Source: a virus. From it: DNA of 64,000 bases. Of this stretch, positions 9,420 to 61,287 are shown piece after piece. Under the pieces are notes generated by a model. That model saw only the letters and a program-made list of their open reading frames with translations, did no database searches and was not told the origin of the DNA. Position 1 is the stretch's first letter; every line of letters starts with the position of its first letter. The position numbers and the translations under genes were made by a program. The stretch lies in the IMG/VR virus record IMGVR_UViG_3300049137_000145, positions 1 through 64,000 of that record, one strand, 5' to 3'.

Positions 9420-9434
9420 TAGGACCAACGTAGC

Positions 9435-10594: not shown

Positions 10595-10636
10595 TCCCCT
10601 GGTCTCCGCTCCCTGGTCATCCTGTCTGCCGCCTGG

Positions 10637-10864: not shown

Positions 10865-10872
10865 GCCGCCTC

Positions 10873-11847: not shown

Positions 11848-12137
11848 ACACGCTCCGGGAAGTGCCAGGTGCCGCCGGTGTGGTCGTCCTCGTCCTGGAG
11901 GACGAACTGGTTGAAGAACATGCCGGTGGGGTTCATCACGGCCAGCGAGACGAACACGCAGCCCGGCTCAGAGTCCGGCGCCACGTCGGTAGCGGTGACG
12001 ATGGCTGCGCGGCACTGCGAGGTGTACTCCTGCGAGCCGTCCGGCCGGTACGGCGTGCCATGGCTGACGTAGTGGACGACCCGCCCGACGGACGGGCGTT
12101 GTGTCCCGGGTATCTCAGGTGTCTCCGGATGCTCCAC
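11844..12137 (-). CDS. hypothetical protein in the lysis cassette
   Basis: Frame of ORF 11844..12161. GTG at 12137 lies 6 nt after AAGGAG. ATG at 12161 is an alternative start. Confidence 0.5.
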   Translation of the reverse strand: MEHPETPEIPGTQRPSVGRVVHYVSHGTPYRPDGSQEYTSQCRAAIVTATDVAPDSEPGCVFVSLAVMNPTGMFFNQFVLQDEDDHTGGTWHFPERV

Positions 12138-12435
12138 TGCGGGCTCCTTTGATCTGCGCATGGCCCACGAGCCATGCCTGGTAAAGCATCAGCACCCCGA
12201 AGAGGGCCGCGAGGAATCCACGCACGATGCGCAGGAGTTCCGCGTCGGACCGCATCACGGTGATGCCGATGGAGATGGCCATGAACGCCGCAACGGCCAG
12301 CGCCTTGGTGACGAGCAGACGTCCGACGGCGTCCCGCCACCACCTGGCGAACACGCTGTAGACAGCTACGAAGGCCAGGCACCCGACGAGCGCCAGGACG
12401 CTGCCCCACAGGTTCACGGCCTCACCGCCCGTCAT
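12115..12435 (-). CDS. holin-like membrane protein with about 3 transmembrane segments
   Basis: Hydrophobic stretches LWGSVLALVGCLAFVAVYSVF, ALAVAAFMAISIGITV and FLAALFGVLMLY. It sits next to the endolysin. Confidence 0.55.
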   Translation of the reverse strand: MTGGEAVNLWGSVLALVGCLAFVAVYSVFARWWRDAVGRLLVTKALAVAAFMAISIGITVMRSDAELLRIVRGFLAALFGVLMLYQAWLVGHAQIKGARSGASGDT

Positions 12436-28634: not shown

Positions 28635-31600
28635 TCACTCCTTTCCGTGTACCTGACGGGACAGGGACGCCAGGACGCGGCGGTATGCCCACTGATCCAG
28701 CTCGTCTTCGGTCAGGCCGTCGTGGAGCTGCGGGATACCGGCTGCGACCAGGGCGAGTTGCTGGCCGAGTGCCGTGCGGGTCTTCAGCTTCGGCACGGGG
28801 AAACCGGGGACGTTGACAGCGAGCAGGCCGACCAGGCGCAGCGAACCGCCGATGCGGCGCCAGTCGCCGGACACCTGGCCTGCGGCGCGCAGTTCCCGGA
28901 TGCGTTCCTCCGGGGTGCCGGGACGGACCGCGCCGGCCACCCAGATGCCGTGCGCGTCGTTGCCCACCGCGACGTCGGCGACGGCCGCGCCGGTGTTGTC
29001 GTAGTGGTCGGCGGCGGCCCGGTAGCCGTAGGACAGCGGGGCGTGCCCGGTGCCCACGGTGATCTGGCCGACGGAGACTGACGATCCGTCCTCCGTCCAG
29101 ACGTTGCCGGTCATGTAGTACGGGTGGGTCTCTTCGTGCGGCGGCGTGACGCACACCCCGGCCTGACCGATGTGGCAGGTGCCCCACAGCGCGGCGTGGC
29201 CGTACACCCGGCCCTCCGGGGTGACGGTGATCCCGGTCGGCACCGACAGGCCGGGGTTGGCGAACCACGCGGCCGGTGGCCGGACGGGCGCATCCACAGT
29301 CAGCGAGCGGAAGCGGGCAACCCGTGTTTCGCGCACCGCACCGATGGGCTCGCCGCCGGCGACGACCGCGCCGTCCTCATCGAGCAGGGCGATGTACGCC
29401 TCGGCGAAGGCCGGGATGTCCACCAGCGTCGCGGCCCGGATGCGGCCCTTGTTGAAAACCACCTTCTCCGGAGACGCGAACAGCATGTCGAACGGGTCGG
29501 GCCCCTCTCCGTCGGCGTCCGGGTCGCTCGGCCAGACCAGCTCCATGTCGGCGTCCTTGATGGAGTCGACGTCCACGGACACGCCGCGCAGGAACTGACC
29601 CTTGATCTTCCCGTGGACGGTGCGGCCGTCCTCGGTGGACAGGTCCAGGACGCCCTCGCCCATGATGAGGCCGCCGTCCTCGCGCCAGATGCTGTCGATG
29701 CGGCCGACGTTGACGGCGATGGTCCGGGGCTCACCGCCGTGGGAGTCCTCTTTGTTCCAGCGCAGCGGGAGCGGGAGGTCGGCCCACGTCAGAGCCTCGG
29801 GCTTGAACTCCCGGCCGTCGCCGGTCTCGATGCCCTCCACTGTGAGCGGGCCCCGCCACGGCGCGGTCTCGCCGTCGGTACCGATCTCCGCCGCCGGCTT
29901 CCCGGCCACATCCTCGGCGTCAGCCGCCGCGCCGTGGGCCAGGGCCTGCGCGGCGCCCGCCGCCTGCTGCTCCCCGATCTTCACGCACTCGCCGTCGGGG
30001 CCCGGCTCCATGCCGGGCGGGCACTGCTTCTCCTCGCCGTCCTGGTTCTCCTTCAGCCGCTTGTCCGCCGGCGTGCCCGGGTTCGGCTCACCCTTGGCCA
30101 GGGCCTCGGTCGCTTCGGTCGTCATGGACTGGTCTCCTTCCGCCGCGTCCTGTGCGGCCCGTTGTGTGCCGGCGCTCGCTGTGGTCGCCGTGTCCCGCAC
30201 GTCCTGCCAGACGGCGACAAGGAACCCCCTGCACGCGTTGCCATAGCGAGCGCCGGTGCAGTCCCGGTAACCCATGACCGGGTACTCCGCCATGGCGGCA
30301 TCCAGGGTGGTGAAGGTGCGGCCGTCGATCACCTTGCAGGGACCGCACGTCCGGCTGTCCAGGATCTCGGAGGCCACGTAACTGGATGCGGGCGGCGCGG
30401 TCTCCATCACCGCGTGGCGTCCGGCGTTCTGCGCGGCAGTCATCGCCTGGCCGACGGCCGCCCGGACGGAGGTGTCGTCCACCGTGGCCAGCTCCCGGTC
30501 GACCTCGGCCGCGATCTGCTCCGACGGGCGGCTGGAGCGCAGCAGGCCGGACAGCTTGCGCTTGGCGGCCGTCAGCAGCGCTCCGGACATGAGGTCGCTG
30601 GTCAGTTCCGCGACGGAGGTCAGCAGGCGCCGACCGGTGAGGGCGGCCACCACGGCGTCGTCCTCGTCACCGTCGGGCAGGGACCAGTCAGGCACCTGCA
30701 CGCCCTGCGCCTCGGCCTCGCGCTGGCAGGCGCGGCCCGCCTTGATGGCGTATTCCTCCATGAGGTCCAGCAGCGTGGCCGTCGCGGCGCGGCCGTCCAG
30801 GGCCAGCTCCGGGACCGAGTCCAGGTCGTCGTCGGCGAGGTCCCGGGTGATCTGTCTGCGCAGGTCCAGTCGCCAGGCGGCCGTCACCGACCGCAGCGCC
30901 CGCAGCGCCCCGGCGGTCGCCGCATCCCACTCCGCGTGCACGCCGGCGAAGTCGGCGCGGCTGGCCAGCTCCAGCTCGGTCGGCTCCCGGCGCAGCGGTC
31001 CGGCGGCGGCCGTCACGGCCTCGCCGAGCGGGATGTCCCGGTCGTCGTCGCCGAAGCTGAGCCGGATCCGGTCGAACATCACTTCACCCAGGCGCTGCTC
31101 CAGATCCCCGAGCAGGGCCGGGTCGTCGCTGTACGCCGCGCAGACGTGCGCCGACCATGGGCTGTGCTGTGGGGGCAGTTCGGGCCGGGCGTGGGTGGAC
31201 TCCAGGGCCTCGGTGACGCAGGCCCGGACCCGCAGCAGCCCGTCCGGCGGAACGTGCTCGCCGGGCTCCACGTCGCCGACGTTCCATACCCAGCACGGGT
31301 AGTCGCCGCCACCGTTCCAGTGCGCGGCGCCGAACGCCTTGGCCCGCACAGGCCCGAGCCCGTACAGCTCCACCAGCGGGCGCAGGATCCCCTCCAGCTC
31401 GTTGCGCTGGTCCTCGGTCCAGGCCGCGCCGTCGTCACCGAGGAAGAACAGCGTCAGGTGCAGCTCCTCGGCCGGCTCGCCACCCGGTATCGCCAGACGC
31501 TCGGCGTCCCCGGGCGTCGGCATGAGAGCGATCATGCACCCCTGTGTGTGCGACCCGTCGGCGGCGGCTGTCAGCGTCGGAGAGTGCTGGTGAGCCTGCT

Positions 31601-31688
31601 TGCGGACCACGGACCTGACGTCCGGCGGAAGTTGTCGGCGGAGCAGGTTGCCGCCCTCGTTGACATCTACTTCAGTGCGCGGGGGCAT
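28635..31688 (-). CDS. fusion protein: 2H-phosphoesterase (LigT)-like N-terminus, MuF/SPP1 gp7-like head morphogenesis domain, prohead-protease-like C-terminus
   Basis: N-terminus has HLTLFFLG ... PWSAHVCAAY. The middle reads ...ILDSRTCGPCKVIDGRTF...YRDCTGARYGNACRGFLV (MuF C-terminal type). The C-terminal part reads WRGPLTVEGIETGDGREF... The start may instead be ATG 31535. Confidence 0.75.
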   Translation of the reverse strand: MPPRTEVDVNEGGNLLRRQLPPDVRSVVRKQAHQHSPTLTAAADGSHTQGCMIALMPTPGDAERLAIPGGEPAEELHLTLFFLGDDGAAWTEDQRNELEGILRPLVELYGLGPVRAKAFGAAHWNGGGDYPCWVWNVGDVEPGEHVPPDGLLRVRACVTEALESTHARPELPPQHSPWSAHVCAAYSDDPALLGDLEQRLGEVMFDRIRLSFGDDDRDIPLGEAVTAAAGPLRREPTELELASRADFAGVHAEWDAATAGALRALRSVTAAWRLDLRRQITRDLADDDLDSVPELALDGRAATATLLDLMEEYAIKAGRACQREAEAQGVQVPDWSLPDGDEDDAVVAALTGRRLLTSVAELTSDLMSGALLTAAKRKLSGLLRSSRPSEQIAAEVDRELATVDDTSVRAAVGQAMTAAQNAGRHAVMETAPPASSYVASEILDSRTCGPCKVIDGRTFTTLDAAMAEYPVMGYRDCTGARYGNACRGFLVAVWQDVRDTATTASAGTQRAAQDAAEGDQSMTTEATEALAKGEPNPGTPADKRLKENQDGEEKQCPPGMEPGPDGECVKIGEQQAAGAAQALAHGAAADAEDVAGKPAAEIGTDGETAPWRGPLTVEGIETGDGREFKPEALTWADLPLPLRWNKEDSHGGEPRTIAVNVGRIDSIWREDGGLIMGEGVLDLSTEDGRTVHGKIKGQFLRGVSVDVDSIKDADMELVWPSDPDADGEGPDPFDMLFASPEKVVFNKGRIRAATLVDIPAFAEAYIALLDEDGAVVAGGEPIGAVRETRVARFRSLTVDAPVRPPAAWFANPGLSVPTGITVTPEGRVYGHAALWGTCHIGQAGVCVTPPHEETHPYYMTGNVWTEDGSSVSVGQITVGTGHAPLSYGYRAAADHYDNTGAAVADVAVGNDAHGIWVAGAVRPGTPEERIRELRAAGQVSGDWRRIGGSLRLVGLLAVNVPGFPVPKLKTRTALGQQLALVAAGIPQLHDGLTEDELDQWAYRRVLASLSRQVHGKE

Positions 31689-43689: not shown

Positions 43690-44969
<1,280 letters not shown>

Positions 44970-45944: not shown

Positions 45945-46238
45945 CTTGGACGCCGCCCGCGCGGCTATCCGGTTCGCCAGTGACCACAGCAGCCGGGCCG
46001 CAGACGGCGGTTTGCGAGTCGGCGTCGGGGCCGCACCTATGACGGACGGATCCATAACCCGGCTCGCGGCTACGGCTGCCTTCCGGGCATTGGCCGAGGG
46101 CCACCCCTGGGTGGTCTCATCAACGGCCGCCACGGCCGCATCGAACAGACAGGCGCTGATGGTCACGCCGCCCGCACGTGCATCCACCACAGCGCGGCGG
46201 ACTTCTTTCAGCAGTCGTTCCGTCCCAAGATCTCGCAT
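45936..46238 (-). CDS. hypothetical protein
   Basis: The ATG overlaps the dehydratase stop (TGATG). C-terminal part of ORF 45936..46892. Confidence 0.45.
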   Translation of the reverse strand: MRDLGTERLLKEVRRAVVDARAGGVTISACLFDAAVAAVDETTQGWPSANARKAAVAASRVMDPSVIGAAPTPTRKPPSAARLLWSLANRIAARAASKMV

Positions 46239-47326
46239 CACAGCTCCAGCCATATCGGGTTGGCGAGCGACCAGCGCACGGTGCGCCCGATGGACGACTC
46301 CAGCGGCATCGGCGGCTTCCACCCCAGAGCAGCGAGCCGCGAGCCGTCTAGGGCGTAGCGCAGGTCGTGCCCCGGCCGCGAGGCGTGGAAGGAGATGGGC
46401 TCGATGAGGTCGTCCACCGCGGCGGGGTCCAGTCCCATGGCCTCTCCGACCATGTGCACCAGCTCCACGTTGTCTACCTCGCGCTCGCCGACGATGTTGT
46501 ACCGCTCGGGCCTGGTGAAAGCGCCGTCCCGGTACTGCGCCGGGCCCATCGCGATGTGTATGCGCTCGCCGCTGAGGGTGGTCACCTCGGGTTCGTCCTC
46601 GGTGTACCGCCGGGTCAGCCACAGCCACGCGTCGGCGAGGTTGCGCGCGTGCAGGTAGAAGCGGGAGCCGGGGGTGCCGTCGGGCGCAACGTGCACCAGA
46701 AGGGGGCGGCCCGCGCGCAGGCACTTGATGATTTTCGGCAAGAACTTCTCGCCGTCCTGCATCTCCCCGATGATGTTCATGGTGTTGGTCAGGACGACCG
46801 GCACACCGTAGGTCCGCCAGTAACTGACCGCGATGGACTCCTGCGCCGCCTTGCTCGCGCTGTACGGGTTGGACGGCACGGCCGGCTCCCACTCCGCGTG
46901 CCGGTGCTCCCCGTAGGCCGGGCCGTAGACCTCGTCGGTGGACATCTGGAGGAACAGGCGCGGCTGGATGGCCCGGGCGACCTCCAGCACGTTCAGCATC
47001 AGCGCGACGTTGTTCTGCACAAACGGCACCGGATGGGCGATGCTGCGGTCTACGTGGCTCTCGCTGGCGACGTTCATGATCACGTCGCAGCCGTCGAACT
47101 GGTGCAGCGTCAGTGGGTCGGCCGGCGCCCGCATGTCCCAGTGCACCACGTCCACGCGCCCTGCCCAGTCCGTGTCGGATACGGCGGATGCGATCCGGGC
47201 CGGCAGACCCTTGTGGTGGAAGCTGACCGGGCAGACGACGTCCCAGTCCGTGTTTGTCAGCAGGTGCCGCAGGACGTGGCTCCCGACGAAACCGGCCGCA
47301 CCGGTGAGCAGTATGCGCATGGCCAC
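46238..47326 (-). CDS. NAD-dependent sugar-nucleotide 4,6-dehydratase (RmlB-like, extended SDR)
   Basis: TGAAGFVGSH, ASESHVDRS, STDEVYG, YSASKAA. Confidence 0.85.
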   Translation of the reverse strand: MAMRILLTGAAGFVGSHVLRHLLTNTDWDVVCPVSFHHKGLPARIASAVSDTDWAGRVDVVHWDMRAPADPLTLHQFDGCDVIMNVASESHVDRSIAHPVPFVQNNVALMLNVLEVARAIQPRLFLQMSTDEVYGPAYGEHRHAEWEPAVPSNPYSASKAAQESIAVSYWRTYGVPVVLTNTMNIIGEMQDGEKFLPKIIKCLRAGRPLLVHVAPDGTPGSRFYLHARNLADAWLWLTRRYTEDEPEVTTLSGERIHIAMGPAQYRDGAFTRPERYNIVGEREVDNVELVHMVGEAMGLDPAAVDDLIEPISFHASRPGHDLRYALDGSRLAALGWKPPMPLESSIGRTVRWSLANPIWLEL

Positions 47327-47531
47327 CCGTTCCTAGGTCCCTGGTCGTGGCCGGATCGTAGCCAGGGACCGGGAAATCGCCGAACGCGCAGGAACCGCCC
47401 GATGCGGCGTCGGGCGGTTCCTGTTTTCTGCGCGTGACGTCAGGTCAGATACCCGCTGTCGTGCCGGGTCACTCCCATCGGAACAGACCGGCCCCCGCAA
47501 AACGGATAGAGGCCGGTCAGCACTCCGTGCG

Positions 47532-47819
47532 TCACACGGTGTCCCTGGCGTTGCCGTCGTAGGAGCGCTCGATGTAGAGCACCGACTCGGAGGTCCCGTT
47601 CTCGTACTCGGTACGCAGGCTGTTCAGGGCCGCATCGAGGTACGGCAGGAACTGCTCTGCTGCCACGCGCCGGTCCCCGTTGTTCGTCGTGAGCACGATC
47701 TGAACGGGCAGGTTGTCGCTGGTCTCCAGGCTGTACGTGATCCGCGAGGTGTCGAACCCGTCGGTGGGAAGAGGCACGTCTGTCTCCTGTCGTGGATGGA
47801 CGAACCCGGATGATGCCAC
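47532..47819 (-). CDS. hypothetical protein
   Basis: ORF track. Chosen over the overlapping 47440..47835 frame on amino-acid composition. Confidence 0.45.
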   Translation of the reverse strand: MASSGFVHPRQETDVPLPTDGFDTSRITYSLETSDNLPVQIVLTTNNGDRRVAAEQFLPYLDAALNSLRTEYENGTSESVLYIERSYDGNARDTV

Positions 47820-47835
47820 CTGTCGCCCGGCTCAC

Positions 47836-48477
47836 CTACTGACCGTCGTCCGGATCGTCCGTCTCACTGACGACTTCGCCCTCCAGCGTGCGCAGGTGCG
47901 CGCCGGCTGCCTCCAGCATCCGCTGCCGCTGCGCAGGCTCCAGCTCCACCGCGTTGGCGCCGGCCAGGATGGCCTCCACCACCACGGTCGTCTCCTCGTC
48001 CACCCGGCGGTCCAGCGCGATGGTCAGCTTCTCCGAGGCGTCCGTACCGTCGATCTTGGCCTGTCGCTCCTCGATGCGCTGGAGTCGGTCGATGCATGCG
48101 AGGACCACGCTGTCGTCGCGCAACGGGTTGCCGTCCTCGTCCTTGACGATCTGCCCTTGATAGAGGACGTAGTGCGGCCGGGCAAGCACCGCGTGGACCT
48201 GGCGGCGCATCCCGTCCAGCCGCATCCGCGCCGCCTCGCGGTACTCCTCCAGTCCCATGGCCAGTTCCTTGTTGGCTTGCTTCAGCGCGCGGGAGACGTC
48301 CACGCAGGCCGCCGCCGCCGAGGGGTTGCCCTCGGAGTCCAGGTAGTGCGGGGACATCTGCTCGGCGACCTGCTGCCAGGACAGGCCCCGGTTCTTCAGT
48401 TCGATGGCCCGCGCCCGGCGTTGCGCCACCATCGCCCGGTGGCTCGGCTGGTGGCTGGGCGGATCACCCTTCGCCAT
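47836..48477 (-). CDS. HTH DNA-binding protein, possibly the terminase small subunit
   Basis: N-terminal HTH-like segment AIELKNRGLSWQQVAEQM followed by coiled coil. The functional assignment is tentative. Confidence 0.45.
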   Translation of the reverse strand: MAKGDPPSHQPSHRAMVAQRRARAIELKNRGLSWQQVAEQMSPHYLDSEGNPSAAAACVDVSRALKQANKELAMGLEEYREAARMRLDGMRRQVHAVLARPHYVLYQGQIVKDEDGNPLRDDSVVLACIDRLQRIEERQAKIDGTDASEKLTIALDRRVDEETTVVVEAILAGANAVELEPAQRQRMLEAAGAHLRTLEGEVVSETDDPDDGQ

Positions 48478-48508
48478 GGTCCTTAGCCTCCCTAACGATT
48501 AACAGCAC

Positions 48509-49279
48509 TCACAGTCCGCAGCGCGTGGCGAACGCACCGATGACGGTCCACTGGTGCCAGCGAAACAGGATCTCCGGGTCGTGCCATCCGGCCGCCCGAA
48601 TGGAGTGGATGAGCGTGTCCTGCGGATGCGGGACGAGGACGCCCCGCAGCGCCCGGGACTTGGCCCGGATACCGTCGGCAGAAATGCCGTGCTCTGCCTT
48701 CCAGTCGTGCGACGAGTCAGTGCTGATCTCATGCCACCTCGAGTCGAGCGGCCGAACCTTCTCCGCGACGATCAGTGCGCCGGTCTCCCGTGCGGACATC
48801 CGGGCCAGGTGGAGGGCAGCCACGCGGTCCCGCAACGGGAGGAACTGGAGCGTGAACAGGCACAGCGTCAGGTCCGCGTCCGTGTGCGCGAGCGGCGGGG
48901 ACTGGATCGGCGCGCGTACGTAGTCGATGTGGCGGGCTGGAGCGGTGGCCAGGTTCTCGGCAGCCCTGTCCAGCATCGGTTTCTCAACGTCGTACAGAAC
49001 GGCCGAGACGTCCCGGTGGGCCTGTCGGCGCAGAATGCTACCCACCGTGGTCCCGGTGGACGCGCCGAGGTCGGCGATCAGGCCGCCGTGCGGAACGAGC
49101 CAGTCGGACAGGCCGGCCACGAGATCCTGGATCGCGTCGTAGAACGGGACACTGGCGCGCACGTGGACGTCGAACTCGTTCACCACGTCCGGGGTGAAGG
49201 ACCAGGCGCCGGCGGCGAAGGTCTCCGCAATGTCCCGGCGGGCGGGCGTCTCATCCGTAGAGGCGTCGGTATTCTGCAC
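48509..49279 (-). CDS. CmoA-like class I SAM-dependent enzyme (carboxy-SAM synthase family)
   Basis: Colinear with my recalled E. coli CmoA sequence: WSF..V..F..HV.ASVPFYD, DLGASTG, the exact FTLQFL block, AEK, and HDWKAEHG...AKSRAL. Confidence 0.75.
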   Translation of the reverse strand: MQNTDASTDETPARRDIAETFAAGAWSFTPDVVNEFDVHVRASVPFYDAIQDLVAGLSDWLVPHGGLIADLGASTGTTVGSILRRQAHRDVSAVLYDVEKPMLDRAAENLATAPARHIDYVRAPIQSPPLAHTDADLTLCLFTLQFLPLRDRVAALHLARMSARETGALIVAEKVRPLDSRWHEISTDSSHDWKAEHGISADGIRAKSRALRGVLVPHPQDTLIHSIRAAGWHDPEILFRWHQWTVIGAFATRCGL

Positions 49280-50657
49280 GGTAGTACCTCGCAGGGTCCG
49301 GGAGGGTCTGACTTATCAAGGTCTTCAGCCCGAGGCCATCCTGGAACGCCACCTTCGGGCGGGTGGTCACGGAGTCCGGGAGCCGGCCCCGGTACGCGCG
49401 CTGGAGTACGGCCTTCGGCCGGGCTTTGCCGTCCTGAACGGCGTGCCTGGGCAGGGACAGGGCGAGGTCCACGACGTCCGGGTCCAGGAACGGCAGCCTG
49501 CCCTCCACGCCGTGGGCCATGAACGACTTGTTCACCCGGGGGAAGTTGCGCCGGGCCTGCGCGGCGATCAGGTCCCGCCGGTAGGTGAACCAGCCCGATT
49601 TGGCCAGACCGTGGTAGGCGAACCCGTACGATGCCCACAGCTCGTCACTGCCCTCGCCGGTGTACGTGACCTTGAAGCCGTCGGAACGGATGGCCCTCGC
49701 GAGAGCGAGACACGGCCAGGAGATCTCTACCTGTGCCTTGTAGTCCATCTCGACCTGCGCGACGACGTGAGAGAGGTCGTCGGCCGTCGGCGGCGGGACG
49801 TCGACCTCCACCAACTTGACGCCGATCATCTCGGCTGTCTCCCGGGCGCAGCGCAGGTCCCGGGACCTCGGGTCCATCCGTGCGGTGTAGCAGACCAGGT
49901 CCGGGTAGTGCTGCTTCAGCTCCAGAGCGATGGCGGCGGAGTCGATGCCGCCGGACAGCAAGGAGCACACCGGCACATCGGCAATGGCCCGCCGGTCCAC
50001 GGCCCGCTCAAGGGCCCCAGCGAGGGCGTCGGCCGCGTTGTCCAGCGTCCAGTTCGCCGGATGCGCGGTGAGCCGGTGGAAGGTCCGCCGGGACGTCGCA
50101 CCGCTGGTCGCCTCAGTTCTCCACCACTCCCCCGGACCGACGTCCAGCACAGCCGGGCCGCAGCGGCGCCCGAGCGCGGTGAACGCCTTCAGCTCCGAGG
50201 CGTACAGCACAGGCCGGGTCCGGTGGACGTGCAGCGGGATCTCCCCGTGCCGGTCCCGCGCCGCGTGCAGCACGCCCGGCTCTCGGTCGTCCGTCCACAC
50301 CAGGGCGAACATGCCGTCCAGAGCGGGCAGCGTGCGGGCGGGGCCGAGGACGGCGAGCGCAGCGGCGATGACCTCCGTGTCCCCGCTGGTCTGCCAGGTC
50401 CGGCCAGGATCGGCGCGCTCTACTGTGCGCCGGACGGCCGGGGCGTTGAACAGCTCCCCGTTGTAGGTGAGCAGCACCGGCCCGTCGCGGTACGGCTGAT
50501 CCGAACGCGTGGAAGGGTCCTGAATCGCCAGCCGCGTGTGCCCGAGGGTCACCCCGCCGGACTCGGCGACGGCCGACGCATCCGGGCCCCGGTGCGCCAG
50601 GGCAGCCACAGCCCGGCTGAGGTCCGCGCGGCCGGCGGCGGCGACCAGACCGCACAT
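49251..50657 (-). CDS. asparagine synthetase B-family, glutamine-dependent amidotransferase
   Basis: N-terminal MCG (Cys2 nucleophile), PP-loop SLLSGGIDS, GEGSDELW, and MAHGVEGRLPFLD. The ATG overlaps the methyltransferase stop. Confidence 0.85.
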   Translation of the reverse strand: MCGLVAAAGRADLSRAVAALAHRGPDASAVAESGGVTLGHTRLAIQDPSTRSDQPYRDGPVLLTYNGELFNAPAVRRTVERADPGRTWQTSGDTEVIAAALAVLGPARTLPALDGMFALVWTDDREPGVLHAARDRHGEIPLHVHRTRPVLYASELKAFTALGRRCGPAVLDVGPGEWWRTEATSGATSRRTFHRLTAHPANWTLDNAADALAGALERAVDRRAIADVPVCSLLSGGIDSAAIALELKQHYPDLVCYTARMDPRSRDLRCARETAEMIGVKLVEVDVPPPTADDLSHVVAQVEMDYKAQVEISWPCLALARAIRSDGFKVTYTGEGSDELWASYGFAYHGLAKSGWFTYRRDLIAAQARRNFPRVNKSFMAHGVEGRLPFLDPDVVDLALSLPRHAVQDGKARPKAVLQRAYRGRLPDSVTTRPKVAFQDGLGLKTLISQTLPDPARYYRAEYRRLYG

Positions 50658-51907
50658 CAGATCGTCCCTGCCTCGCGCAGCGGCACGAGGATCCGGTCCC
50701 GCACGGCGGTGGCGATGTGGGACATCATCACCGGCGGCACGGCCCGGCCGATGCGCTCCCAGCGCTGCGCGTACGTCCCGGTGAGCACGAAGTCGGCCGG
50801 GAACCCGCCGATGGCCCGCAGCTCTCCGAGGGTCAGCTTCCGGGCCTCTACCCCGTGACACGGCCCGGTGATCGTGACGTCCCCTTGCGCAGCCATCACC
50901 GTGTTGTATGGCCGGTCCGGGTGCTGCCGCCTGACGTGGAAATACTTCTGCGACTTCTCTCCAGGCCGCAGCCTCGCCCACTCATCGCCGACGGCGTACC
51001 CCTTGATGGACAGGGCCTGCCCTGTCTCCGGGTCGTGGGTGGCCGGGTTCTCCGCGTCACATACGTAACCCGCTCCTTTGTTGGGCCCGCTAGCCATCAG
51101 AGTTGGCGCAGAGCCGCTTTCCGCCGGGTACATCGTTGACAGTACGTCCCGGCGGGCTGCTACGAAGTCGGCGTGAGGCGGGGCCGTACCGTACATAGCG
51201 ATCCACGGCAGCGCGTCCCGCACGGTGTACCGGTACGGCAGCGGCGCTGGGTGCACCGGGTCCATGCCGAGGTTTTCTCGGACACCCACGAAAATGAGCC
51301 GTTGCCGGGCCTGCGGGACGCCCAGCCACGAAGCGTCTAGCACGCGAGCCTGCACCCTGTACCCGCACGCGCGCAGCCGGGCCAGGATCAGCTTGAAATA
51401 CCCCTTGGCCGTGCCTTTGACCAGGCCGGCGACGTTCTCGGCGACGAACGTCCTGGGCTGCGTCTCCTCGATGAGCCGGGCGTACTCGTAGAACAGGTCG
51501 TCGGTGCGCTGCTGGGTGTCACTGTACTTCTTCACCTGGCCCCAGCCGGCCTCGCGTTTGCCGGCTGTAGAGAACGAGGCACATGGCGGGGAGCCGTCGA
51601 ACAGGTCGATCTCCCCGGCCCCGAGGCCGCATGCGTCCAGGATGTCCTGGCCGGTGACCTCCCGGATGTCGCGGGTGTCCAGCACGGTGTACGGCGCCGC
51701 GTTGGCCCGGTACGTCTCCTGCGCAGCGGGGATGAACTCACTGGCCCACAGCACCCTGAAACCGGCCATGCGGTAGCCGAGGGAAGACCCGCCACAGCCC
51801 GAGAACGTACTGACTGCGTTGAAGCCGTTCCACGGCAGGCCCCGGATTTCTCCCATGGACGGCACGCGGTACGGCGGCTTGCCGGTCACCGGGACTTTCC
51901 TGACCAC
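50657..51907 (-). CDS. DNA cytosine-5 methyltransferase-fold enzyme with an atypical motif X (GRAVPP)
   Basis: Motif I FSGCGG, motif IV GSPPCASFS, motif VI ENVAGL, motif VIII QARQRLIFVG, motif X IGRAVPP. Confidence 0.9.
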   Translation of the reverse strand: MVRKVPVTGKPPYRVPSMGEIRGLPWNGFNAVSTFSGCGGSSLGYRMAGFRVLWASEFIPAAQETYRANAAPYTVLDTRDIREVTGQDILDACGLGAGEIDLFDGSPPCASFSTAGKREAGWGQVKKYSDTQQRTDDLFYEYARLIEETQPRTFVAENVAGLVKGTAKGYFKLILARLRACGYRVQARVLDASWLGVPQARQRLIFVGVRENLGMDPVHPAPLPYRYTVRDALPWIAMYGTAPPHADFVAARRDVLSTMYPAESGSAPTLMASGPNKGAGYVCDAENPATHDPETGQALSIKGYAVGDEWARLRPGEKSQKYFHVRRQHPDRPYNTVMAAQGDVTITGPCHGVEARKLTLGELRAIGGFPADFVLTGTYAQRWERIGRAVPPVMMSHIATAVRDRILVPLREAGTI

Positions 51908-52497
51908 TCATACCCGCACTTGGGGCACCGGTGTTCGGTCTCGATGTCCTCGTCGTAGGTCGGGAATTCCGCCGGCGGCACCGGGGCAGGGATGGCGGTC
52001 GCATCGAATTCGGGTGCGTCCGCTTGGCTGAACAGCTCCGCATCCGAGAGCGCGTAACCGGTGCCCACGAGGTCGTCGTCTAGTGTGGCGAGCAGCGCGG
52101 CCAGGGCGTCGTCGTCATAGGAGCCGTCGTCGGCCGACTTGTTGTCCACCAGGTTGATGCGCGTGGCGGTCGCGTCGTCGCACTCGATGAGGTGGGCGAG
52201 CGCCGTCGGGTCGTCGCGGTCCACCTCGATGCAGAGCTGGCACGGCCGGTCGTTGGCCAGCTCCCAGTCCTTGCATGCTTCGCGACCGTCTTCCTCGTGC
52301 CGCAGCAGCGCCAGATACGTGTGGTTGCCGGCGAGGATCGTCAGCGTCTCGTCGGCCCGGCGGACGGTGAGCGGCCTGTACTGCCCGTTGGCCCGTAGGC
52401 TGTCCAGAATCAGATCGACGTTGCCCCGGCGCGCGTTGCCCTCGAACGGGGTGAGATCTTCCAGTGGGACGCGTTCGGTCCCTACGGTCGTGGTCAT
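51886..52497 (-). CDS. ParB N-terminal (ParB/Srx nuclease-like) domain protein with a C-terminal zinc ribbon
   Basis: PLEDLTPFEGNARRGN...ILAGNHTYLA. C-terminus has CPKCGYEW. It overlaps the methyltransferase start by 22 nt. Confidence 0.8.
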   Translation of the reverse strand: MTTTVGTERVPLEDLTPFEGNARRGNVDLILDSLRANGQYRPLTVRRADETLTILAGNHTYLALLRHEEDGREACKDWELANDRPCQLCIEVDRDDPTALAHLIECDDATATRINLVDNKSADDGSYDDDALAALLATLDDDLVGTGYALSDAELFSQADAPEFDATAIPAPVPPAEFPTYDEDIETEHRCPKCGYEWSGKSR

Positions 52498-52573
52498 CGC
52501 TGCCCCTTCGCCTGGTCGACGGACGCGGCGATGTTAAGACCGGAACAGCCCATGATCGTTCCGGAGCACGATG

Positions 52574-52610
52574 AAGCCCCGGGCCGTGAGGATCCGGGGC
52601 TCGGGGCTTC
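52574..52610 (-). terminator. hairpin upstream of the modification cassette
   Basis: GAAGCCCCGG ... GGGGCTTC. Confidence 0.55.
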
Positions 52611-52619
52611 GTCAGGCGG

Positions 52620-52847
52620 TCAGGGATGGGCGCGCAGCCGCAGGGCCTCCAGTTCTTCGGCGACTTGCCGTGCCATGTTCCGGGCCTCGGGAAGGGTGTG
52701 CCGGGAGGCCTTGCACGGCACAGCCCTGTGACCTCTCATCGACTGTTCACGGCTGAAGTGCCGGTAGAGCCTCCCCGCGTCCGTGACCCTGGCCGTGCGA
52801 CTGCACAACGGGCACAGAGTCGTGCCGTCTGCATTGATCTCGTTCAC
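52620..52847 (-). CDS. small zinc-ribbon protein, paralog family member P1
   Basis: CPLCS...GRLYRH...CKAS, C-terminus LRLRAHP. The GTG overlaps the upstream stop (GTGA). Confidence 0.5.
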   Translation of the reverse strand: MNEINADGTTLCPLCSRTARVTDAGRLYRHFSREQSMRGHRAVPCKASRHTLPEARNMARQVAEELEALRLRAHP

Positions 52848-53044
52848 GGGCCGCCCCCGTTCGGGTCCGCCACAGTCACAGTGACCTGGGGCGAGTCGTC
52901 CCGGTCGTAGAACGCGTCCGTGATCCACCGCGTCGCCACTGCGGGAAGTTCCGCATCGGTGTAGTACTCGTCCCCGGGCTCCGCTGCGGGGTGGCCGCGC
53001 CATTCGATGTCCACGATCAGCCGCGTGCGTCTCGGTTCAGTCAC
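52844..53044 (-). CDS. hypothetical protein
   Basis: ORF track. Confidence 0.5.
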   Translation of the reverse strand: MTEPRRTRLIVDIEWRGHPAAEPGDEYYTDAELPAVATRWITDAFYDRDDSPQVTVTVADPNGGGP

Positions 53045-53471
53045 AGATCCCCAGCTCCCTCATTCGCTCGCGGGGTGTCAGTTCCTTGCAACCGCAGGGG
53101 CCGACTTCGGAGACGTGGTCCGGGCACGGGTCGGCGTGACGCAAGTGCCCGCAGCCGGGACAGACCCGATTCGGCGGACAGCCACACCCCTCGCCCTCGT
53201 GATGGCCGCATCCCCGGCAGACCTCCGCCGCCGGGGTCCGGCCCGGGACAGCGACGCCACGCATGAACGCGAACAAGTCCGCCTTGCAGCCGGGGCAAAG
53301 TTCCCGCAGGTCCGCCGACCCGTCCTCGTTGGGGATCTTGGGCCGCGTCCAGCCCTCCGGCAGCTCGGGCCGGGCCGTCGGAATGGCAGGGCCTGTGAGT
53401 CCGGCGAACAGCATCACGGGCCGGGTCTGCTCCTGGAACCCGCAGCGGTCGCACTCCAGATGAACGCTCAT
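53037..53471 (-). CDS. Cys-rich protein with multiple CxxC motifs
   Basis: ATG at 53471 with ATGA overlap. CDRCG, CPGC, CRGCGHHEGEGCGCP, CPGCGH. Confidence 0.5.
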   Translation of the reverse strand: MSVHLECDRCGFQEQTRPVMLFAGLTGPAIPTARPELPEGWTRPKIPNEDGSADLRELCPGCKADLFAFMRGVAVPGRTPAAEVCRGCGHHEGEGCGCPPNRVCPGCGHLRHADPCPDHVSEVGPCGCKELTPRERMRELGICD

Positions 53472-56943: not shown

Positions 56944-59900
56944 TCAGTCCTTCGCGTAGCAGGACGCCCAGTCCCGGGCCGCCTTGGAGGCCCCGGCGGT
57001 GATCGGCACGCCCTTGAACTCGAACGTGAACGCGTCCAGCACTGTGGCCGTGATCTCCTTCACGCGGTCCTCGGGGACGCACAGGACGACCTCGTCGTGC
57101 ACGACGCAGCGCAGCCACTCCGTGGCCTCCGGAGCCCGGTCGACCAGACGCAGGAGCGCTTCGCACATGATGTCCCGGGCGCCGCCCTGACCCATGAGCG
57201 CCGGGGCCTGCGTCCAGGCACGGTCGGGGTTGCAGCGCATGAGCCGGCCGAACCCGTTGTCCAGCAACTCGCCAGCCGCCGCCCGCTCCCGAACCTCGGT
57301 CCGCCAGGCGCACAACACCGGATACTGCGCGTTCATCTGGTCATCGAACTTCTGGGCCAGTTCCAGCGCGACACCGGAGTTGGCGATGCCCTTGACGGAC
57401 ATGCCGTAGTTCCATCCGTGGCCGATGCGCTTGGCGTTGTCGCGCCACTCACCGTCGTGCCGGCCGAACACGGCGTCGGCGATGCGCGAGTGCGCGTCCT
57501 CGCCGGGAGCGAAGTTGGCCATGTACGCCGGGTCCTGGCAGTGGCCGGCGATGGCGCGCATGTCGACCTGGTCCAGGTCGAAACAGATCAGCAGTGAACC
57601 GTCGTCGGCGATGAGCGGACGCCGCTGGTGCACCTTGCCGCCACGCTTGGCCATGTTGGTGACCGACGGGCGGACGTACGCCCACCGGCCAGAGCCCTGG
57701 AGATCGCCGACCTGGGGGTGGATCCGGTCGCCGATCAGGTGATCCATGATCTCCTGGTACTTCTGGACCGAGGACGTCACGGTGACGATGTGGCCCGCCA
57801 TCTCCTCGATTGCGGTCCAGTCGGCGTTCGGGTGGTATGGACGCCGGTTGGGGTTCAACAAGGCCGGCACCTCGCGACCCCCCGCCCCCTTGCCGACGAA
57901 GTACGACCCCCTGCCCAGCGCATCCTTGTTGAGGCTGATCAGGCCAGACGCCGTCTTGAGGTAATACGGCAGCCCCCGGTCGGCGAACGCCTTGATGATC
58001 GCCTCCCGGCCCTCGTTGGTGGACAGCGGCGACTTGACCGGCTCGTCAGTGAAGACGCGGTTCTTGCCCCGGCCCTTGCCGACGGAGCGGGTCAGCGGGA
58101 CACCGCAGTGCTCGTGCAGCCACTCCAGCGACTCCTGCCTCTTGGCGGCCTCCGCGTCGACCAGCTCACGCAGGACGGGGACGTCGACCTTCCAGCCGGT
58201 CAGGGTCGGCCGGTGCTGGATGTGGGCCACCCGCATCTCACGCCGGACGTAGTCCGAGGGCTCGCCCAGAGCGCGCCGCACGCCCCGGGTGGCCTGAAGA
58301 TCGCCGCTGAAGTAGACGCTCAGCTCGTTGACCGGGATCCGCCCGTACCCGAGGTCGGTGCGCTCGGCCTTGTCCAGCTTGCGGCCGTCGATCTCCTCGG
58401 GCCCGTGCTTGAAGGCGAGCGCCGACAGGTCGTCGGTCTTGCCGTTGACCCCGTGACGCTGTGCGGTCTGGTCGAGGCCGTAGTAGCCCTTGGCTGCCCA
58501 GGGCTTTTCGTGGGCAGCGCCGGGCGGGTCGATGGTCTGCTCCCACCGGAGGGTGTCCATCGTCTTGGCGGCCAGCTTGTCGTAGTCGGCTCCGTGGTGG
58601 ATGGCGAGGGCCATCAGGTCGAACCCGAGCAGATTGTGGCCGTACAGCTCGTCGGCGTCCTCCAGCCGCTTGATCAGCTCATCGACGGAGTTGACGACAA
58701 CCTCCGTGCCGTCCTCGGTGACGTAGCCGGCCAGCCGGACGTACGGGTCGCCGCCGAGGTCTTTGTGCCGGAACAGCAGCTTGGCGCTGTGGGTCTCCAG
58801 GTCGAACCCGACCACGCCGCCGGCGCGAACCGGGGCAGCCTCCGGGGACGGTGCCTGGGCGGGGACGGAGGCCGCACGGGGGGTGTGATCGGCTTCCGCT
58901 TCCGCGAAGGGATCGCCCCCGAACGGATCCGCGTCGAGGGCAGGCTGAGAGGGTGTACCCCCTGTACCTCCTGCTCCTGTTCCCCCTATACGGGGAGAGA
59001 TTTCACGGTTATAGGTCGGAGGAGGTACAGGGGGTACACCCTCGTCTCCGCCGTCGTTGACCTCGTCTTTTCCGTTCGGGTCCTGGAAGCGCACTCCGAG
59101 CCACGCCTGGTAGTTGACGCCCGTGGGGGTGTGGCCGCCCAGTGTCGACCGTCCGTCCCGCGCCCTGATCTTCTTTCGTTCGACCCCGTTCCGGGCGCAC
59201 TCGTCGTGGCCTCCGAATCGGGAGACGAAGGTGCGGTCGGTCCACTCACGGTGGCCCTTGTCCGCCAGGTACTTGTTGAAGACCTCGTGCAGCTCCCGGG
59301 CAAGGATGTGGCTGTTCCAGTCGAACGTCAGGACATCCCCGATGAACGACAAGATCAGGTCCGATTCCTTGCGCCAGCTCAAGGTGTCCTTTTCCACCTG
59401 CTTCGGCGCGGGCGGCATGATCTGCCCCGCTGCGTACCACTTGCGGGCCCCCTCCACCAGCCACGCCAGCGCAGCCTCCGTACGTGGCCCGTCGTCCGTG
59501 CGCAGGCGCTGACGGAGCATCTGGTCACCGGGTTTGTCGTAGGGCCCTGTGCATGCCTCTCCGGGCTTCCTGAACGTGAACGGGAACGTGAGCATCTGGA
59601 GCCTGCGCCACGTGCCGTGGTCCGACTCCTCCACCAGCGGCCGGTGGTTGGTGTTGATGATCAGCGTATGCGTCGCCTTGAAGGTCACGCTGTCCTGGCG
59701 CATCTTGCGCGCCGTGATCTGCTCGGTACCGGCGAGCTGCTTGACCCGGTTGACGTCGAGCTTCTTCGCTTCCGGGGTCTCCTCCAGGACGGCCAGGCGG
59801 GCACCGAGGAAGTCCATCATCTCGGTGGGGTGGTTCTCGCTCGCGTTGCCGAGCAGGGCCCGGTGAGCAACGGCCGTGTGGTACCCGCCGCGCGTACCGG

Positions 59901-61287
59901 CGGCCTTCGCCAGAGTGTCCATGATCGAGGACTTGCCGTTGGATCCGCCGCCCTGGCAGATGAGGATGACGTCGTCCGGCGGCGTGTGCCCGGTGATGGC
60001 CTGGCCGTTGCGGATCTGGAAGTAGTCCACTACGTCGTCAGGGACGGCCTCCAGAGCGGTGTCCCAGTCGGGGTGCCGGGCACCGGGGACGTAGTCGCAC
60101 CCGGTGATCTTCGTCATCAGCCGGTCGGGGTCGTGGGGGGTGAGCACACCGGTGCGCAGGTCCAGGATGCCGTTCTGGCAGTTGAGGGCGTCGGGGTCGT
60201 AGTCGAAATCGGTGGCCGCCGACTCCAGGATGCCCCTGGACAGCTTCAGCAGGTTGCCCAGTTTGGATGCGGCGAGTGCCCCGCGCCAGCCGTCCATCTG
60301 GCTGCGCAGGTCTTTGTTCGGCTCAGCGCGCTGCTGGTCGAGCACGCGCTGAAAGCCCGCCATCGCCCACTGCCGGATGTCCTCCATCACCGTGGCGTCG
60401 GTGCATTCTGTCCATACCTTGCCGTTCCACTGCATCCACCCGAGCCCGGCGGCCCAGCGGTACCGGCCGTCCAGTGTCTCGGAGCACACCGTGTCGGCGA
60501 GGATCGCGTCGGAGAACGCCGCGTCACGCGTGTTGTCGCTCGGCATCTCGGTGGTGGCCGCGCCGTGAAGGTCGGTCAGCGTGCCGCCGGCGTGGAGGAA
60601 ATCGTCCACGCCCTTGGTGGGCGTTCCGTTGATCTCCTCGGGGACGATCAGGTAGTGGATGACGGCGGCCCCCTTGGACTCCAGCCACATCCCGAGCCGC
60701 CGCATGGCCATCAGGACCATCCTGTTGTGCCGCGCGTCGGAGTCGAAACAGATGACGATGGTCCGGCCCTTGAGCGGGATGTCCTCCCAGTCGCCGAGGG
60801 TGCCCAGACGCGACCGCCAGTTGAAGACGCCGGACAGGGAGACGACGGCGAGGCCCTGGGACGCCAGGGAATCCGCCTTTTTCACGCCCTCAGTGATCCA
60901 CAAGGGATTCGTGACGACACGCACCGCGTTCGCCATGAGCGGCGGAACGTCCAGGCGCGGCTTGGTGCCGACGGGGGAGGCGTATTTCATCATCTTGTCG
61001 CCGCTGCCGCTGCTGTGGGGCTGCGGCTGGCCCGGCTTGAACTGCGCACCGATACGCTCACCGGTCACCCGGTACAGCGGAATGAACAGGCCCGGGAATG
61101 CCGTTTCCTCGCGCCAGGCCCACACCGGGATGGATTCCTCACGCAGCCGGGCCCGGTCTTCATCGGTGCCGTACAACGTCTCGTACCCGCGTGCGTCGCG
61201 GTGCTCCGGGGCGATCTCGCTGGCGTCCAGCTCCGCCAGATGGTGGTCCGACACCTGCCCCGAGTTCGTGTCCACGTACGTGGTCAT
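56944..61287 (-). CDS. 1447-aa fusion: Toprim/DUF3854-like primase region, D5_N plus P4-type helicase, family A DNA polymerase (3'-5' exonuclease plus polymerase)
   Basis: N-terminus has LWITEGVKKADS...VICFDSDA. The middle has NCQNGILDLRTG and Walker A GGGSNGKSS. A Pro/Gly linker follows. Exonuclease has VVGFDLETHS. Polymerase has CFDLDQVDMRAIA, RDNAKRIGHGWNYGMS and VHDEVV. Confidence 0.9.
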   Translation of the reverse strand: MTTYVDTNSGQVSDHHLAELDASEIAPEHRDARGYETLYGTDEDRARLREESIPVWAWREETAFPGLFIPLYRVTGERIGAQFKPGQPQPHSSGSGDKMMKYASPVGTKPRLDVPPLMANAVRVVTNPLWITEGVKKADSLASQGLAVVSLSGVFNWRSRLGTLGDWEDIPLKGRTIVICFDSDARHNRMVLMAMRRLGMWLESKGAAVIHYLIVPEEINGTPTKGVDDFLHAGGTLTDLHGAATTEMPSDNTRDAAFSDAILADTVCSETLDGRYRWAAGLGWMQWNGKVWTECTDATVMEDIRQWAMAGFQRVLDQQRAEPNKDLRSQMDGWRGALAASKLGNLLKLSRGILESAATDFDYDPDALNCQNGILDLRTGVLTPHDPDRLMTKITGCDYVPGARHPDWDTALEAVPDDVVDYFQIRNGQAITGHTPPDDVILICQGGGSNGKSSIMDTLAKAAGTRGGYHTAVAHRALLGNASENHPTEMMDFLGARLAVLEETPEAKKLDVNRVKQLAGTEQITARKMRQDSVTFKATHTLIINTNHRPLVEESDHGTWRRLQMLTFPFTFRKPGEACTGPYDKPGDQMLRQRLRTDDGPRTEAALAWLVEGARKWYAAGQIMPPAPKQVEKDTLSWRKESDLILSFIGDVLTFDWNSHILARELHEVFNKYLADKGHREWTDRTFVSRFGGHDECARNGVERKKIRARDGRSTLGGHTPTGVNYQAWLGVRFQDPNGKDEVNDGGDEGVPPVPPPTYNREISPRIGGTGAGGTGGTPSQPALDADPFGGDPFAEAEADHTPRAASVPAQAPSPEAAPVRAGGVVGFDLETHSAKLLFRHKDLGGDPYVRLAGYVTEDGTEVVVNSVDELIKRLEDADELYGHNLLGFDLMALAIHHGADYDKLAAKTMDTLRWEQTIDPPGAAHEKPWAAKGYYGLDQTAQRHGVNGKTDDLSALAFKHGPEEIDGRKLDKAERTDLGYGRIPVNELSVYFSGDLQATRGVRRALGEPSDYVRREMRVAHIQHRPTLTGWKVDVPVLRELVDAEAAKRQESLEWLHEHCGVPLTRSVGKGRGKNRVFTDEPVKSPLSTNEGREAIIKAFADRGLPYYLKTASGLISLNKDALGRGSYFVGKGAGGREVPALLNPNRRPYHPNADWTAIEEMAGHIVTVTSSVQKYQEIMDHLIGDRIHPQVGDLQGSGRWAYVRPSVTNMAKRGGKVHQRRPLIADDGSLLICFDLDQVDMRAIAGHCQDPAYMANFAPGEDAHSRIADAVFGRHDGEWRDNAKRIGHGWNYGMSVKGIANSGVALELAQKFDDQMNAQYPVLCAWRTEVRERAAAGELLDNGFGRLMRCNPDRAWTQAPALMGQGGARDIMCEALLRLVDRAPEATEWLRCVVHDEVVLCVPEDRVKEITATVLDAFTFEFKGVPITAGASKAARDWASCYAKD
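58951..59041. repeat. perfect 22-bp inverted repeat with a 47-nt AT-richer spacer, inside the helicase-polymerase linker coding region
   Basis: GGGTGTACCCCCTGTACCTCCT at 58951-58972 pairs with AGGAGGTACAGGGGGTACACCC at 59020-59041. Confidence 0.85.

Follow-up and report, generated by a model that had tools for sequence, protein, structure and literature searches.

Layout of the cassette

The stretch of viral DNA analyzed here (64,000 nucleotides, positions 1 to 64,000 of the IMG/VR record IMGVR_UViG_3300049137_000145, referred to below as the window) carries at positions 48509-52497 a cassette of four overlapping open reading frames (ORFs) of the minus strand, with high third-position GC. They encode, in operon order, a ParB-like protein, a homologue of the CmoX-type cytosine C5-carboxymethyltransferases, an AsnB-type ligase predicted to form an amide with glutamine as nitrogen donor, and a homologue of the CmoA-type synthases of carboxy-S-adenosylmethionine (Cx-SAM). 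This cassette is a new and divergent actinophage copy of the published CmoA/CmoX/ligase system and represents a glutaminase-ligase sub-type that is predicted to make a simple amide.

The gene of the ParB-like protein (51886-52497, 203 amino acids) comes first. It is followed by those of the CmoX homologue (50657-51889, 410 amino acids from a GTG codon at 51889), of the ligase (49251-50657, 468 amino acids beginning with MCG), which is the predicted amidotransferase of 5-carboxymethylcytosine (5cxmC), and of the CmoA homologue (48509-49279, 256 amino acids from a GTG codon at 49279). The GTG codon at 51889 generates a GTGA overlap with the stop codon of the ParB-like gene, the stop codon of the transferase gene and the start codon of the ligase gene have one base in common (TGATG, 50659-50655), and the stop codon of the ligase gene (49253-49251) lies 29 nucleotides within the ORF of the CmoA homologue. 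An initial annotation of this DNA, made from the sequence alone, had described the four genes as chained by start-stop overlaps. All of them do overlap, but the transferase start that it had used (a GTG codon at 51907, giving 416 amino acids) appears less likely than the one at 51889, since the latter generates the GTGA overlap, agrees with the Joint Genome Institute (JGI) gene call of an identical protein of 410 amino acids (P0121, encoded on a 93,476-bp contig) and is in keeping with the start (MTKPPY) of the homologue P0177.

The gene order of the cassette recurs in the Streptomyces phage TurkishDelight and in dozens of IMG/VR contigs, and is therefore not due to chance; the co-localisation of homologues in related phages, which had been proposed as a check of the earlier reading, is thus observed. 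In TurkishDelight (NC_073473), gp122-gp125 show the identical four-gene order and overlap pattern, including an equal 29-nucleotide overlap of the ligase and CmoA genes with a conserved N-terminus, and the ligase also has a glutaminase domain. The proteins are 50% (ParB-like), 64% (CmoX), 75% (ligase) and 64% (CmoA) identical to those of the window. TurkishDelight differs by its phage backbone, by the location of the cassette at the end of the genome and by the annotation of the cassette, which is only generic. A scan of positions 47400-53200 of the window found no promoter or terminator, such a scan being uninformative for a high-GC actinophage.

The transferase and the CmoA homologue

A CmoA-CmoX-CmoY pathway was recently described in the Synechococcus phage S-B43 (Yang et al., Nat Commun, 7 December 2025; PMC12783734). 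In this phage, CmoA makes Cx-SAM from S-adenosylmethionine (SAM) and prephenate; SpCmoX, which accepts only Cx-SAM and rejects SAM, makes 5cxmC at GC sites; and SpCmoY, an AsnB-like ATP-dependent ligase, joins glycine to 5cxmC in DNA, the glycine amide being present in the virion DNA (PMC12783734). The structure of SpCmoX (8YF3, 1.9 Å) places Arg350, which replaces Asn304 of HhaI, on the carboxylate of the cofactor; the R350N variant is inactive, and 5cxmC blocks HhaI (PMC12783734). The bioinformatic survey of the same work reported 5,615 CmoX proteins (defined by an SPPC motif and an Arg at the R350 position), 4,257 CmoA proteins, 2,251 ligases and 1,660 ParBc proteins, as well as several ligase clusters that differ in their predicted amine substrates (PMC12783734). 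The statement of the initial annotation that it knew of no such pathway is out of date: the pathway, the Arg determinant, the association with ParB and the ligase cluster are all found in this paper (PMC12783734).

The precedent that it had invoked, a C5-methyltransferase in which the Asn of motif X had been changed to a basic residue, is correct: no other previous way of obtaining 5cxmC is cited in this paper than the engineered M.MpeI N374K of the Kohli laboratory (PMC12783734). The window enzyme resembles M.MpeI N374K by the basic residue in place of this Asn, which lets a C5-methyltransferase use Cx-SAM. However, M.MpeI N374K is engineered, CpG-specific and relies on the CmoA of Escherichia coli, whereas the window enzyme is natural, has an Arg and is accompanied by its own CmoA homologue and by a downstream ligase gene.

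The window transferase belongs to the C5-methyltransferase family (PF00145, E 9e-53; TIGR00675, 166 bits, above the cut-off of 100.65). Its best sequence match in the PDB is SpCmoX (8YF3, E 7e-58, 33% full-length identity), followed by the HaeIII methylase (E 5.5e-24), and the best fold match of its AlphaFold2 model (predicted local distance difference test score, pLDDT, 84.3) is also 8YF3 (E 2.7e-28, template modelling score 0.80). All the motifs that had been listed earlier are present: FSGCGG (I), SPPCA (IV), ENV (VI), QARQR (VIII) and IGRAVPP (X). Motif IV (51578-51592, minus strand, the codon of the catalytic Cys being at 51581-51583) aligns with S95-P96-P97-C98 of SpCmoX, within GSPPCASFS for the window protein and GSPPCSAFS for SpCmoX. 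The Arg of motif X is encoded by a cgg codon at 50744-50746 (minus strand), the position given in the initial annotation, and is R388 in the 416-residue numbering and R382 in the 410-residue numbering. The alignment of ERIGRAVPPVMM (window) with ERVGRMVPPLMM (SpCmoX) puts this Arg on R350, and a count of chain positions in the aligned segments ERIGRAVPP (window) and ERVGRMVPP (SpCmoX) likewise gives residue 350. Judged from these alignments, the motif-X Arg of the window enzyme is equivalent to R350 of SpCmoX, the residue that contacts the carboxylate of Cx-SAM. Both features by which CmoX proteins were defined in the published survey, the SPPC motif and the Arg at the R350 position, are thus found in the window transferase, and a CmoA homologue is encoded two genes downstream. 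Residues ~215-347, between motifs VIII and IX, could be aligned neither with SpCmoX nor with any solved methyltransferase, and the AlphaFold2 model is disordered at residues 233-280. Since this variable target-recognition region is unalignable, no target motif can be predicted, and the preference of SpCmoX for GC sites cannot be carried over to the window enzyme.

The best NCBIfam model for the CmoA homologue is TIGR00740, with an E-value of 5.7e-28 and 98.2 bits for a cut-off of 193.3. Biochemically active SpCmoA obtains 115.6 bits with the same model and therefore also falls below the cut-off, which does not discriminate among phage CmoAs. Both phage proteins match phrog_4752 (E 9e-54 for the window protein and 7e-71 for SpCmoA) and are 26% identical to each other. 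As had been claimed from the sequence, the protein aligns with E. coli CmoA over essentially its full length (4GEK, E 4e-18, residues 21-243), including an exact FTLQFL block (48839-48856, minus strand). Arg199 of E. coli CmoA, presumably a contact of the Cx-SAM carboxylate (a review and an Angewandte paper give no details on CmoA residues, and this Arg was therefore not used as a test), corresponds to Ser208 followed by Arg209 in the window protein and to a Glu in SpCmoA. The phage CmoAs share an Arg located five residues after an invariant Lys, one helical turn later (KSRALRG in the window, 48641-48661). The window contains neither tRNA genes nor a CmoB gene, which argues against a role of the CmoA homologue in tRNA modification.

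The distribution of these genes among relatives gave further information on the cofactor. Among the 120 nearest homologues of the transferase in a large protein collection, the motif-X residue is an Arg in 118, an Asn in one (P0177) and a Met in one (P0160). The neighbourhoods of ~120 related loci were then compared, these loci being obtained by pooling 80 IMG/VR loci retrieved with the window protein and 43 retrieved with P0177 and by removing duplicates. A CmoA-like gene is found in the flank of every assessable locus with an Arg-type transferase (83/83), compared to none of the Asn-type loci (0/32) nor the single Met-type locus (0/1). Fisher's test gives p ~4e-29 for this association, a value that takes no account of the relatedness of the loci, which are kin. 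The residue following the catalytic Cys also differs: all 85 Arg-type loci have A, S or C there, and the Asn-type loci have V, Q or T. The remark of the initial annotation that motif IV reads PPCA and not PPCQ thus tracks the chemistry. A small residue at this position plausibly gives room for the larger transferred group and may be a second determinant of the use of Cx-SAM; no mention of this signature was seen in the text of PMC12783734 that was read.

The Asn-type phages provide the counterpart of the cassette. The phage carrying P0177 is syntenic with the window (polymerase-primase, small genes, ParB-like gene, transferase, homologue of the 213-residue protein p213 that follows the cassette, regulator and endolysin) but has neither ligase nor CmoA gene between the transferase and the p213 homologue, and the phage with the Met variant is alike. 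One of the Asn-type loci belongs to a syntenic sister phage (L008, on a 75 kb contig of Logan SRR22742169, locus 5468-9002), which encodes a ParB-like protein and a transferase with the Asn (RIGNAVPP); ligase and CmoA are absent and a secreted-looking protein of 375 amino acids stands in their place, before the p213 homologue. In this phage, the cassette has a naturally occurring "methyl-type" counterpart.

The Arg-type loci are themselves diverse. Among the 76 with at least 2.5 kb of downstream sequence, 34 encode a glutaminase ligase, always located between CmoX and CmoA, nine encode a CmoY-like ligase and 33 encode none, so that the sampled relatives carry the glutaminase-ligase sub-type about as often as the form devoid of ligase. 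One copy of the cassette (L135, locus 6988-12155) lies within a bacterial chromosome, in a prophage of Streptomyces sp. NBC_01207 (CP108554.1). It includes two tandem CmoX paralogues (361 and 415 amino acids) that both carry SPPCA and RIGRAVPP and differ in their variable regions, which suggests that a single ligase and a single CmoA serve transferases of two target specificities.

The same distribution bears on the possibility that CmoA mainly drains host SAM, or supplies an anti-defence metabolite, and that DNA modification is secondary. The depletion of SAM by CmoA was indeed raised as a question for S-B43 (PMC12783734), but the exclusive occurrence of CmoA with Arg-type transferases would be unexpected for a stand-alone SAM sink, and we regard this explanation as very unlikely. 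The synthesis of Cx-SAM by the CmoA homologue and the carboxymethylation of DNA cytosine at C5 by the CmoX homologue are, in our opinion, highly probable, because of the homology to validated enzymes, the presence of their defining residues and this covariation. The earlier proposal that the phage makes Cx-SAM and writes 5cxmC into its DNA agrees in this respect with the validated homologous system of S-B43, and every family-defining sequence feature open to test is found here.

The ligase and the predicted product

The ligase consists of an N-terminal nucleophile (Ntn) glutaminase domain (GATase_6/7) and a PP-loop adenylating domain (Asn_synthase), and matches E. coli AsnB (1CT9) with an E-value of 8e-39. 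It remains under the cut-offs of both AsnB equivalog models (TIGR01536, 253.5 bits for 267.1; NF006949, 232.7 bits for 499) and is 75% identical to TurkishDelight gp124, which is UniProt A0A7T0Q3R0. This protein is the representative of the second-largest ligase cluster of the published survey, for which the use of glutamine-derived ammonia was predicted and whose enzyme was insoluble (PMC12783734).

Thirteen cassette ligases (~34-91% identity) were aligned with E. coli AsnB from MG1655. The glutaminase residues C1, R49, N74, G75, E76 and D98 are invariant in all of them, and the SGGxDS loop (SGGIDS in the window, 49938-49955, minus strand), E348, D351, R387 and K449 of the adenylation side are conserved in all 13. 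The Cys2 and the SGGIDS loop by which the window protein had been described at the outset as a complete AsnB-type enzyme are present, as are all its glutaminase residues. Like E. coli AsnB, it combines an Ntn glutaminase and a PP-loop ATP pyrophosphatase with conserved catalytic residues. It differs from AsnB in several respects: the TTIR segment of the aspartate site is replaced by AQVE (49719-49736, minus strand), D384 by Asn and K376 by Leu, ~85 C-terminal residues are missing, and it is predicted to act on a DNA base and not on free aspartate. The sequence differences are shared by the cassette ligases, which all have an invariant xQ[V/I]E in place of TTIR, an Asn in place of D384 and a Leu or a Gln in place of K376, and lack the same C-terminal residues. 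Boehlein and colleagues, in 1997, reportedly tied the TTIR segment to aspartate binding and to the formation of aspartyl-AMP.

Databases name the three enzymes "DNA cytosine methyltransferase", "asparagine synthase" and "tRNA methyltransferase", and these annotations would describe an ordinary 5-methylcytosine methyltransferase accompanied by unrelated auxiliary genes, that is, an asparagine synthetase and a CmoA devoted to 5-oxyacetyluridine (cmo5U) in tRNA. The replacement of the aspartate-site residues, the missing C-terminus and the scores below both AsnB equivalog cut-offs argue against an asparagine synthetase, and the lack of CmoB and of tRNA genes in the window against a tRNA function. 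Furthermore, an Arg replaces the Asn of the SAM pocket and covaries perfectly with the presence of CmoA, and, in SpCmoX, the wild type rejects SAM and R350N is inactive (PMC12783734). An ordinary methyltransferase with unrelated neighbours is thus hardly credible, and a dedicated modification cassette is retained below.

At the position of TTIR, K-x-x-[V/F]-E occurs in SpCmoY and in eight ligases of the CmoY type encoded in cassette loci. Because a similar segment is found at the same place in both ligase types, the glutaminase-type and CmoY-type ligases appear to bind a shared acyl substrate, 5cxmC in DNA, and to differ in their nucleophile. The two types also cross-match in PHROG searches, the window ligase matching the PHROG of SpCmoY (phrog_26038, E 2e-9) and SpCmoY matching phrog_16728. 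The window ligase is not a single-domain, glutaminase-free enzyme of the SpCmoY type; its GATase_6/7 domain, which is complete and retains every catalytic residue, places it in the A0A7T0Q3R0 cluster, apart from CmoY sensu stricto.

The nature of the nucleophile is the point on which the window system could depart from that of S-B43. The only characterized ligase, SpCmoY, uses glycine, and other ligase clusters have differing predicted amines (PMC12783734); the window ligase could likewise add glycine, or another amino acid or amine, to 5cxmC made by the same first two steps, its glutaminase domain being then regulatory or vestigial. AsnB relatives that no longer use glutamine, such as beta-lactam synthetase and the lasso cyclases, typically lose Cys1. 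Here, on the contrary, Cys1 and the five other glutaminase residues are invariant over ~34-91% identity, which argues for a working glutaminase, whereas SpCmoY-type enzymes lack this domain altogether. We therefore consider the addition of an amino acid or amine by this ligase as unlikely, and prefer an amidation with glutamine-derived ammonia.

This amidation could also take place earlier. The succession of the reactions cannot be read from the gene order alone, and the ligase might act on the free cofactor, converting Cx-SAM into carbamoylmethyl-SAM whose amide group would then be moved directly to DNA. However, the carboxylate-binding Arg is kept whether the locus encodes a glutaminase ligase, a CmoY-type ligase or none; the cofactor is therefore most simply Cx-SAM throughout, which argues that the ligase acts after the transfer. 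In addition, SpCmoY acts on 5cxmC already in DNA (PMC12783734). An amidation of the free cofactor is in our opinion extremely improbable, and an amidation of the base in DNA is preferred.

The proposed pathway would thus comprise three steps. First, the CmoA homologue would convert SAM and host prephenate into Cx-SAM, as does its validated homologue. Second, the CmoX homologue would flip a cytosine out of double-stranded DNA, the Cys of SPPC would attack C6 and the carboxymethyl group of Cx-SAM would be transferred to C5, generating 5cxmC; the motif-X Arg would bind the carboxylate of the cofactor and the small residue after the Cys would make room for it. Third, the ligase would adenylate the carboxylate of 5cxmC at its PP-loop site and would transfer to it the ammonia released from glutamine by its own Ntn glutaminase domain, giving the uncharged base 5-carbamoylmethylcytosine. 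This third step, which the initial annotation had also proposed, is fairly likely, because the catalytic residues and the place of the gene in the operon are conserved and the signature of the substrate site is shared. The computed [M+H]+ values are 286.103 for 5-carboxymethyl-deoxycytidine and 285.119 for 5-carbamoylmethyl-deoxycytidine, whose base fragment would be at 169.072; the published value for the glycine amide is 343.1 (PMC12783734). A literature search found no report of 5-carbamoylmethylcytosine in DNA nor any later paper on the amide, and the term "carbamoylmethyl" only for 5-carbamoylmethyluridine (ncm5U) of tRNA and for the adenine modified by Mom of phage Mu. A modified base published in eLife in 2021 is carbamoyloxymethylcytosine, whose chemistry is different.

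The comparison with S-B43 summarizes what is shared and what is specific. Both systems include a phage CmoA and a C5-methyltransferase homologue with SPPC and a carboxylate-binding Arg, both encode an AsnB-family adenylating ligase between or beside CmoA and CmoX, and they have common PHROGs for CmoA (4752) and CmoX (116), 8YF3 being moreover the best structural match. They differ by gene order (ParB-CmoX-ligase-CmoA in the window, CmoA-CmoY-CmoX in S-B43) and by the ligase (468 amino acids with a complete glutaminase domain in the window; 271 amino acids, no such domain and use of glycine for SpCmoY). They also differ by the target-recognition region of CmoX, by the ParB-like gene that precedes CmoX in the window, by the host (a high-GC actinobacterium for the window phage, a cyanobacterium for S-B43) and by the low identity of the proteins (only 33% for CmoX and 26% for CmoA).

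Several points weigh against the proposed pathway. The support for this locus comes entirely from sequences and models. The amide has not been observed in any phage, and the sole ligase that has been assayed adds glycine and has no glutaminase domain. The CmoA homologue scores below the curated NCBIfam cut-off and does not conserve R199 of E. coli CmoA, both being also true of active SpCmoA. The counts that support the covariation come from related sequences and are phylogenetically non-independent. Finally, the part attributed below to the ParB-like protein is proposed by analogy only, and SpCmoX works without ParB. Taken as a whole, we nevertheless consider it likely that the cassette is an operon of the CmoA/CmoX/ligase type that hypermodifies cytosines of the DNA after replication, in the manner of the three-step model.

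The ParB-like protein, the phage and the significance of the cassette

The label "ParB-N" of the initial annotation is less secure. The first protein of the operon matches several ParB-like families of PHROG (E 1e-37 to 1e-15), the best being phrog_723, "ParB-like partition protein" (E 1e-37), but it has no match to Pfam PF02195 even at E≤10, and its best PDB sequence match, Spo0J, is weak (E 0.77). The orthologous neighbour in a related locus (L009) has a weak PF02195 match. A ParB-like homologue is encoded directly upstream of the transferase in 77 of 85 Arg-type and 26 of 33 Asn-type loci; as it precedes both types, this gene goes with the transferase clade and not with Cx-SAM. The extreme C-terminus of the window protein carries a zinc-ribbon-like CPKCG motif (51913-51927, minus strand), and the ParB-like proteins encoded by the window, by the Asn-type sister phage and by the Streptomyces prophage share a conserved C-terminal CPKC(G/Q)Y...SGK motif. 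This motif and a cluster of Cys in the middle of the protein may form a zinc ribbon that could stand in for the missing DNA-binding domain of ParB.

A parallel is found in phage thymine dioxygenases (5mYOX/ParB, PNAS 2026), whose dependence on ParB was shown experimentally (PMC13229309). In both cases, the gene of a small ParB-like protein adjoins, within a phage hypermodification cluster, that of an enzyme which modifies DNA bases after replication; however, the partner is there an iron- and 2-oxoglutarate-dependent dioxygenase, and the window protein is too divergent to match PF02195. By analogy, the ParB-like protein may be a partner of the transferase, acting as an activator or as a DNA-targeting or loading factor. 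That the ligase yields 5-carbamoylmethylcytosine and, at the same time, that the divergent ParB-like protein of actinophages is needed to activate or load the CmoX-clade transferases of both the methyl and carboxymethyl types is a combined proposal to which we would give slightly better than even chances.

The window has ~69% GC and encodes a terminase, a portal, a major head protein, a tape-measure protein, an endolysin and a polymerase fusion of 1447 amino acids, nearly all on the minus strand. This content in head and tail, lysis and replication genes identifies a tailed actinophage. A megablast search of the cassette against deposited phages gave no match; the window therefore does not correspond to a known isolate, and searches at the protein level were needed. 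Its DNA polymerase-primase has at most 29% identity to the proteins of any deposited phage, including those of Streptomyces phages, and a relative with ~75-91% identity was found in IMG/VR (contig L003/L010). The polymerase is a single ORF (56944-61287, minus strand) in which a DUF3854/D5-type primase-helicase is fused to a family A DNA polymerase (DNA polymerase I), whereas the nearest Streptomyces phages have two separate genes.

Other genes of the window were examined. The protein p213 (47836-48477, minus strand, 213 amino acids), whose gene always follows the cassette or the transferase gene in relatives, matches phrog_645 and is annotated as "RNase E"; its homologue in L009 is encoded directly before the large terminase, and p213 is perhaps not an RNase but a small subunit of the terminase. 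The third gene downstream from the cassette (46238-47326, minus strand) encodes a short-chain dehydrogenase/reductase resembling dTDP-glucose 4,6-dehydratase (TIGR01181, E 4e-59, below the cut-off; phrog_540, nucleotide-sugar epimerase). It was considered as a member of the cassette and rejected, as it is present in only one of 80 related loci, the closest relative, and is probably outside the module. A glycosyltransferase-like gene is located at 9506-10594. A head-associated protein of 1017 amino acids (28635-31688, minus strand) has MuF or portal-associated and protease-like PHROG matches, and an N-terminal stretch (residues 31-224) matches an "RNA ligase" PHROG. The lysin (43890-44912, minus strand) has Rpf-type transglycosylase, NlpC/P60 and LysM domains and is conserved in L008, where its gene occupies the same position.

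The modification is likely to protect the phage DNA from host restriction endonucleases, as 5cxmC does against HhaI (PMC12783734). TurkishDelight, which infects Streptomyces scabiei and carries the same cassette, is a cultured test system, and the Asn-type sister phages devoid of CmoA and ligase are a clean natural control. The two signatures, a small residue after the catalytic Cys of the transferase and xQ[V/I]E in place of TTIR in the ligase, could guide annotation and enzyme engineering. If the amide is indeed the product, 5-carbamoylmethylcytosine would join the natural DNA bases as a new one and would offer a neutral alternative to 5cxmC, which is charged; with its acetamide group, this cytosine would correspond in DNA to ncm5U in tRNA.

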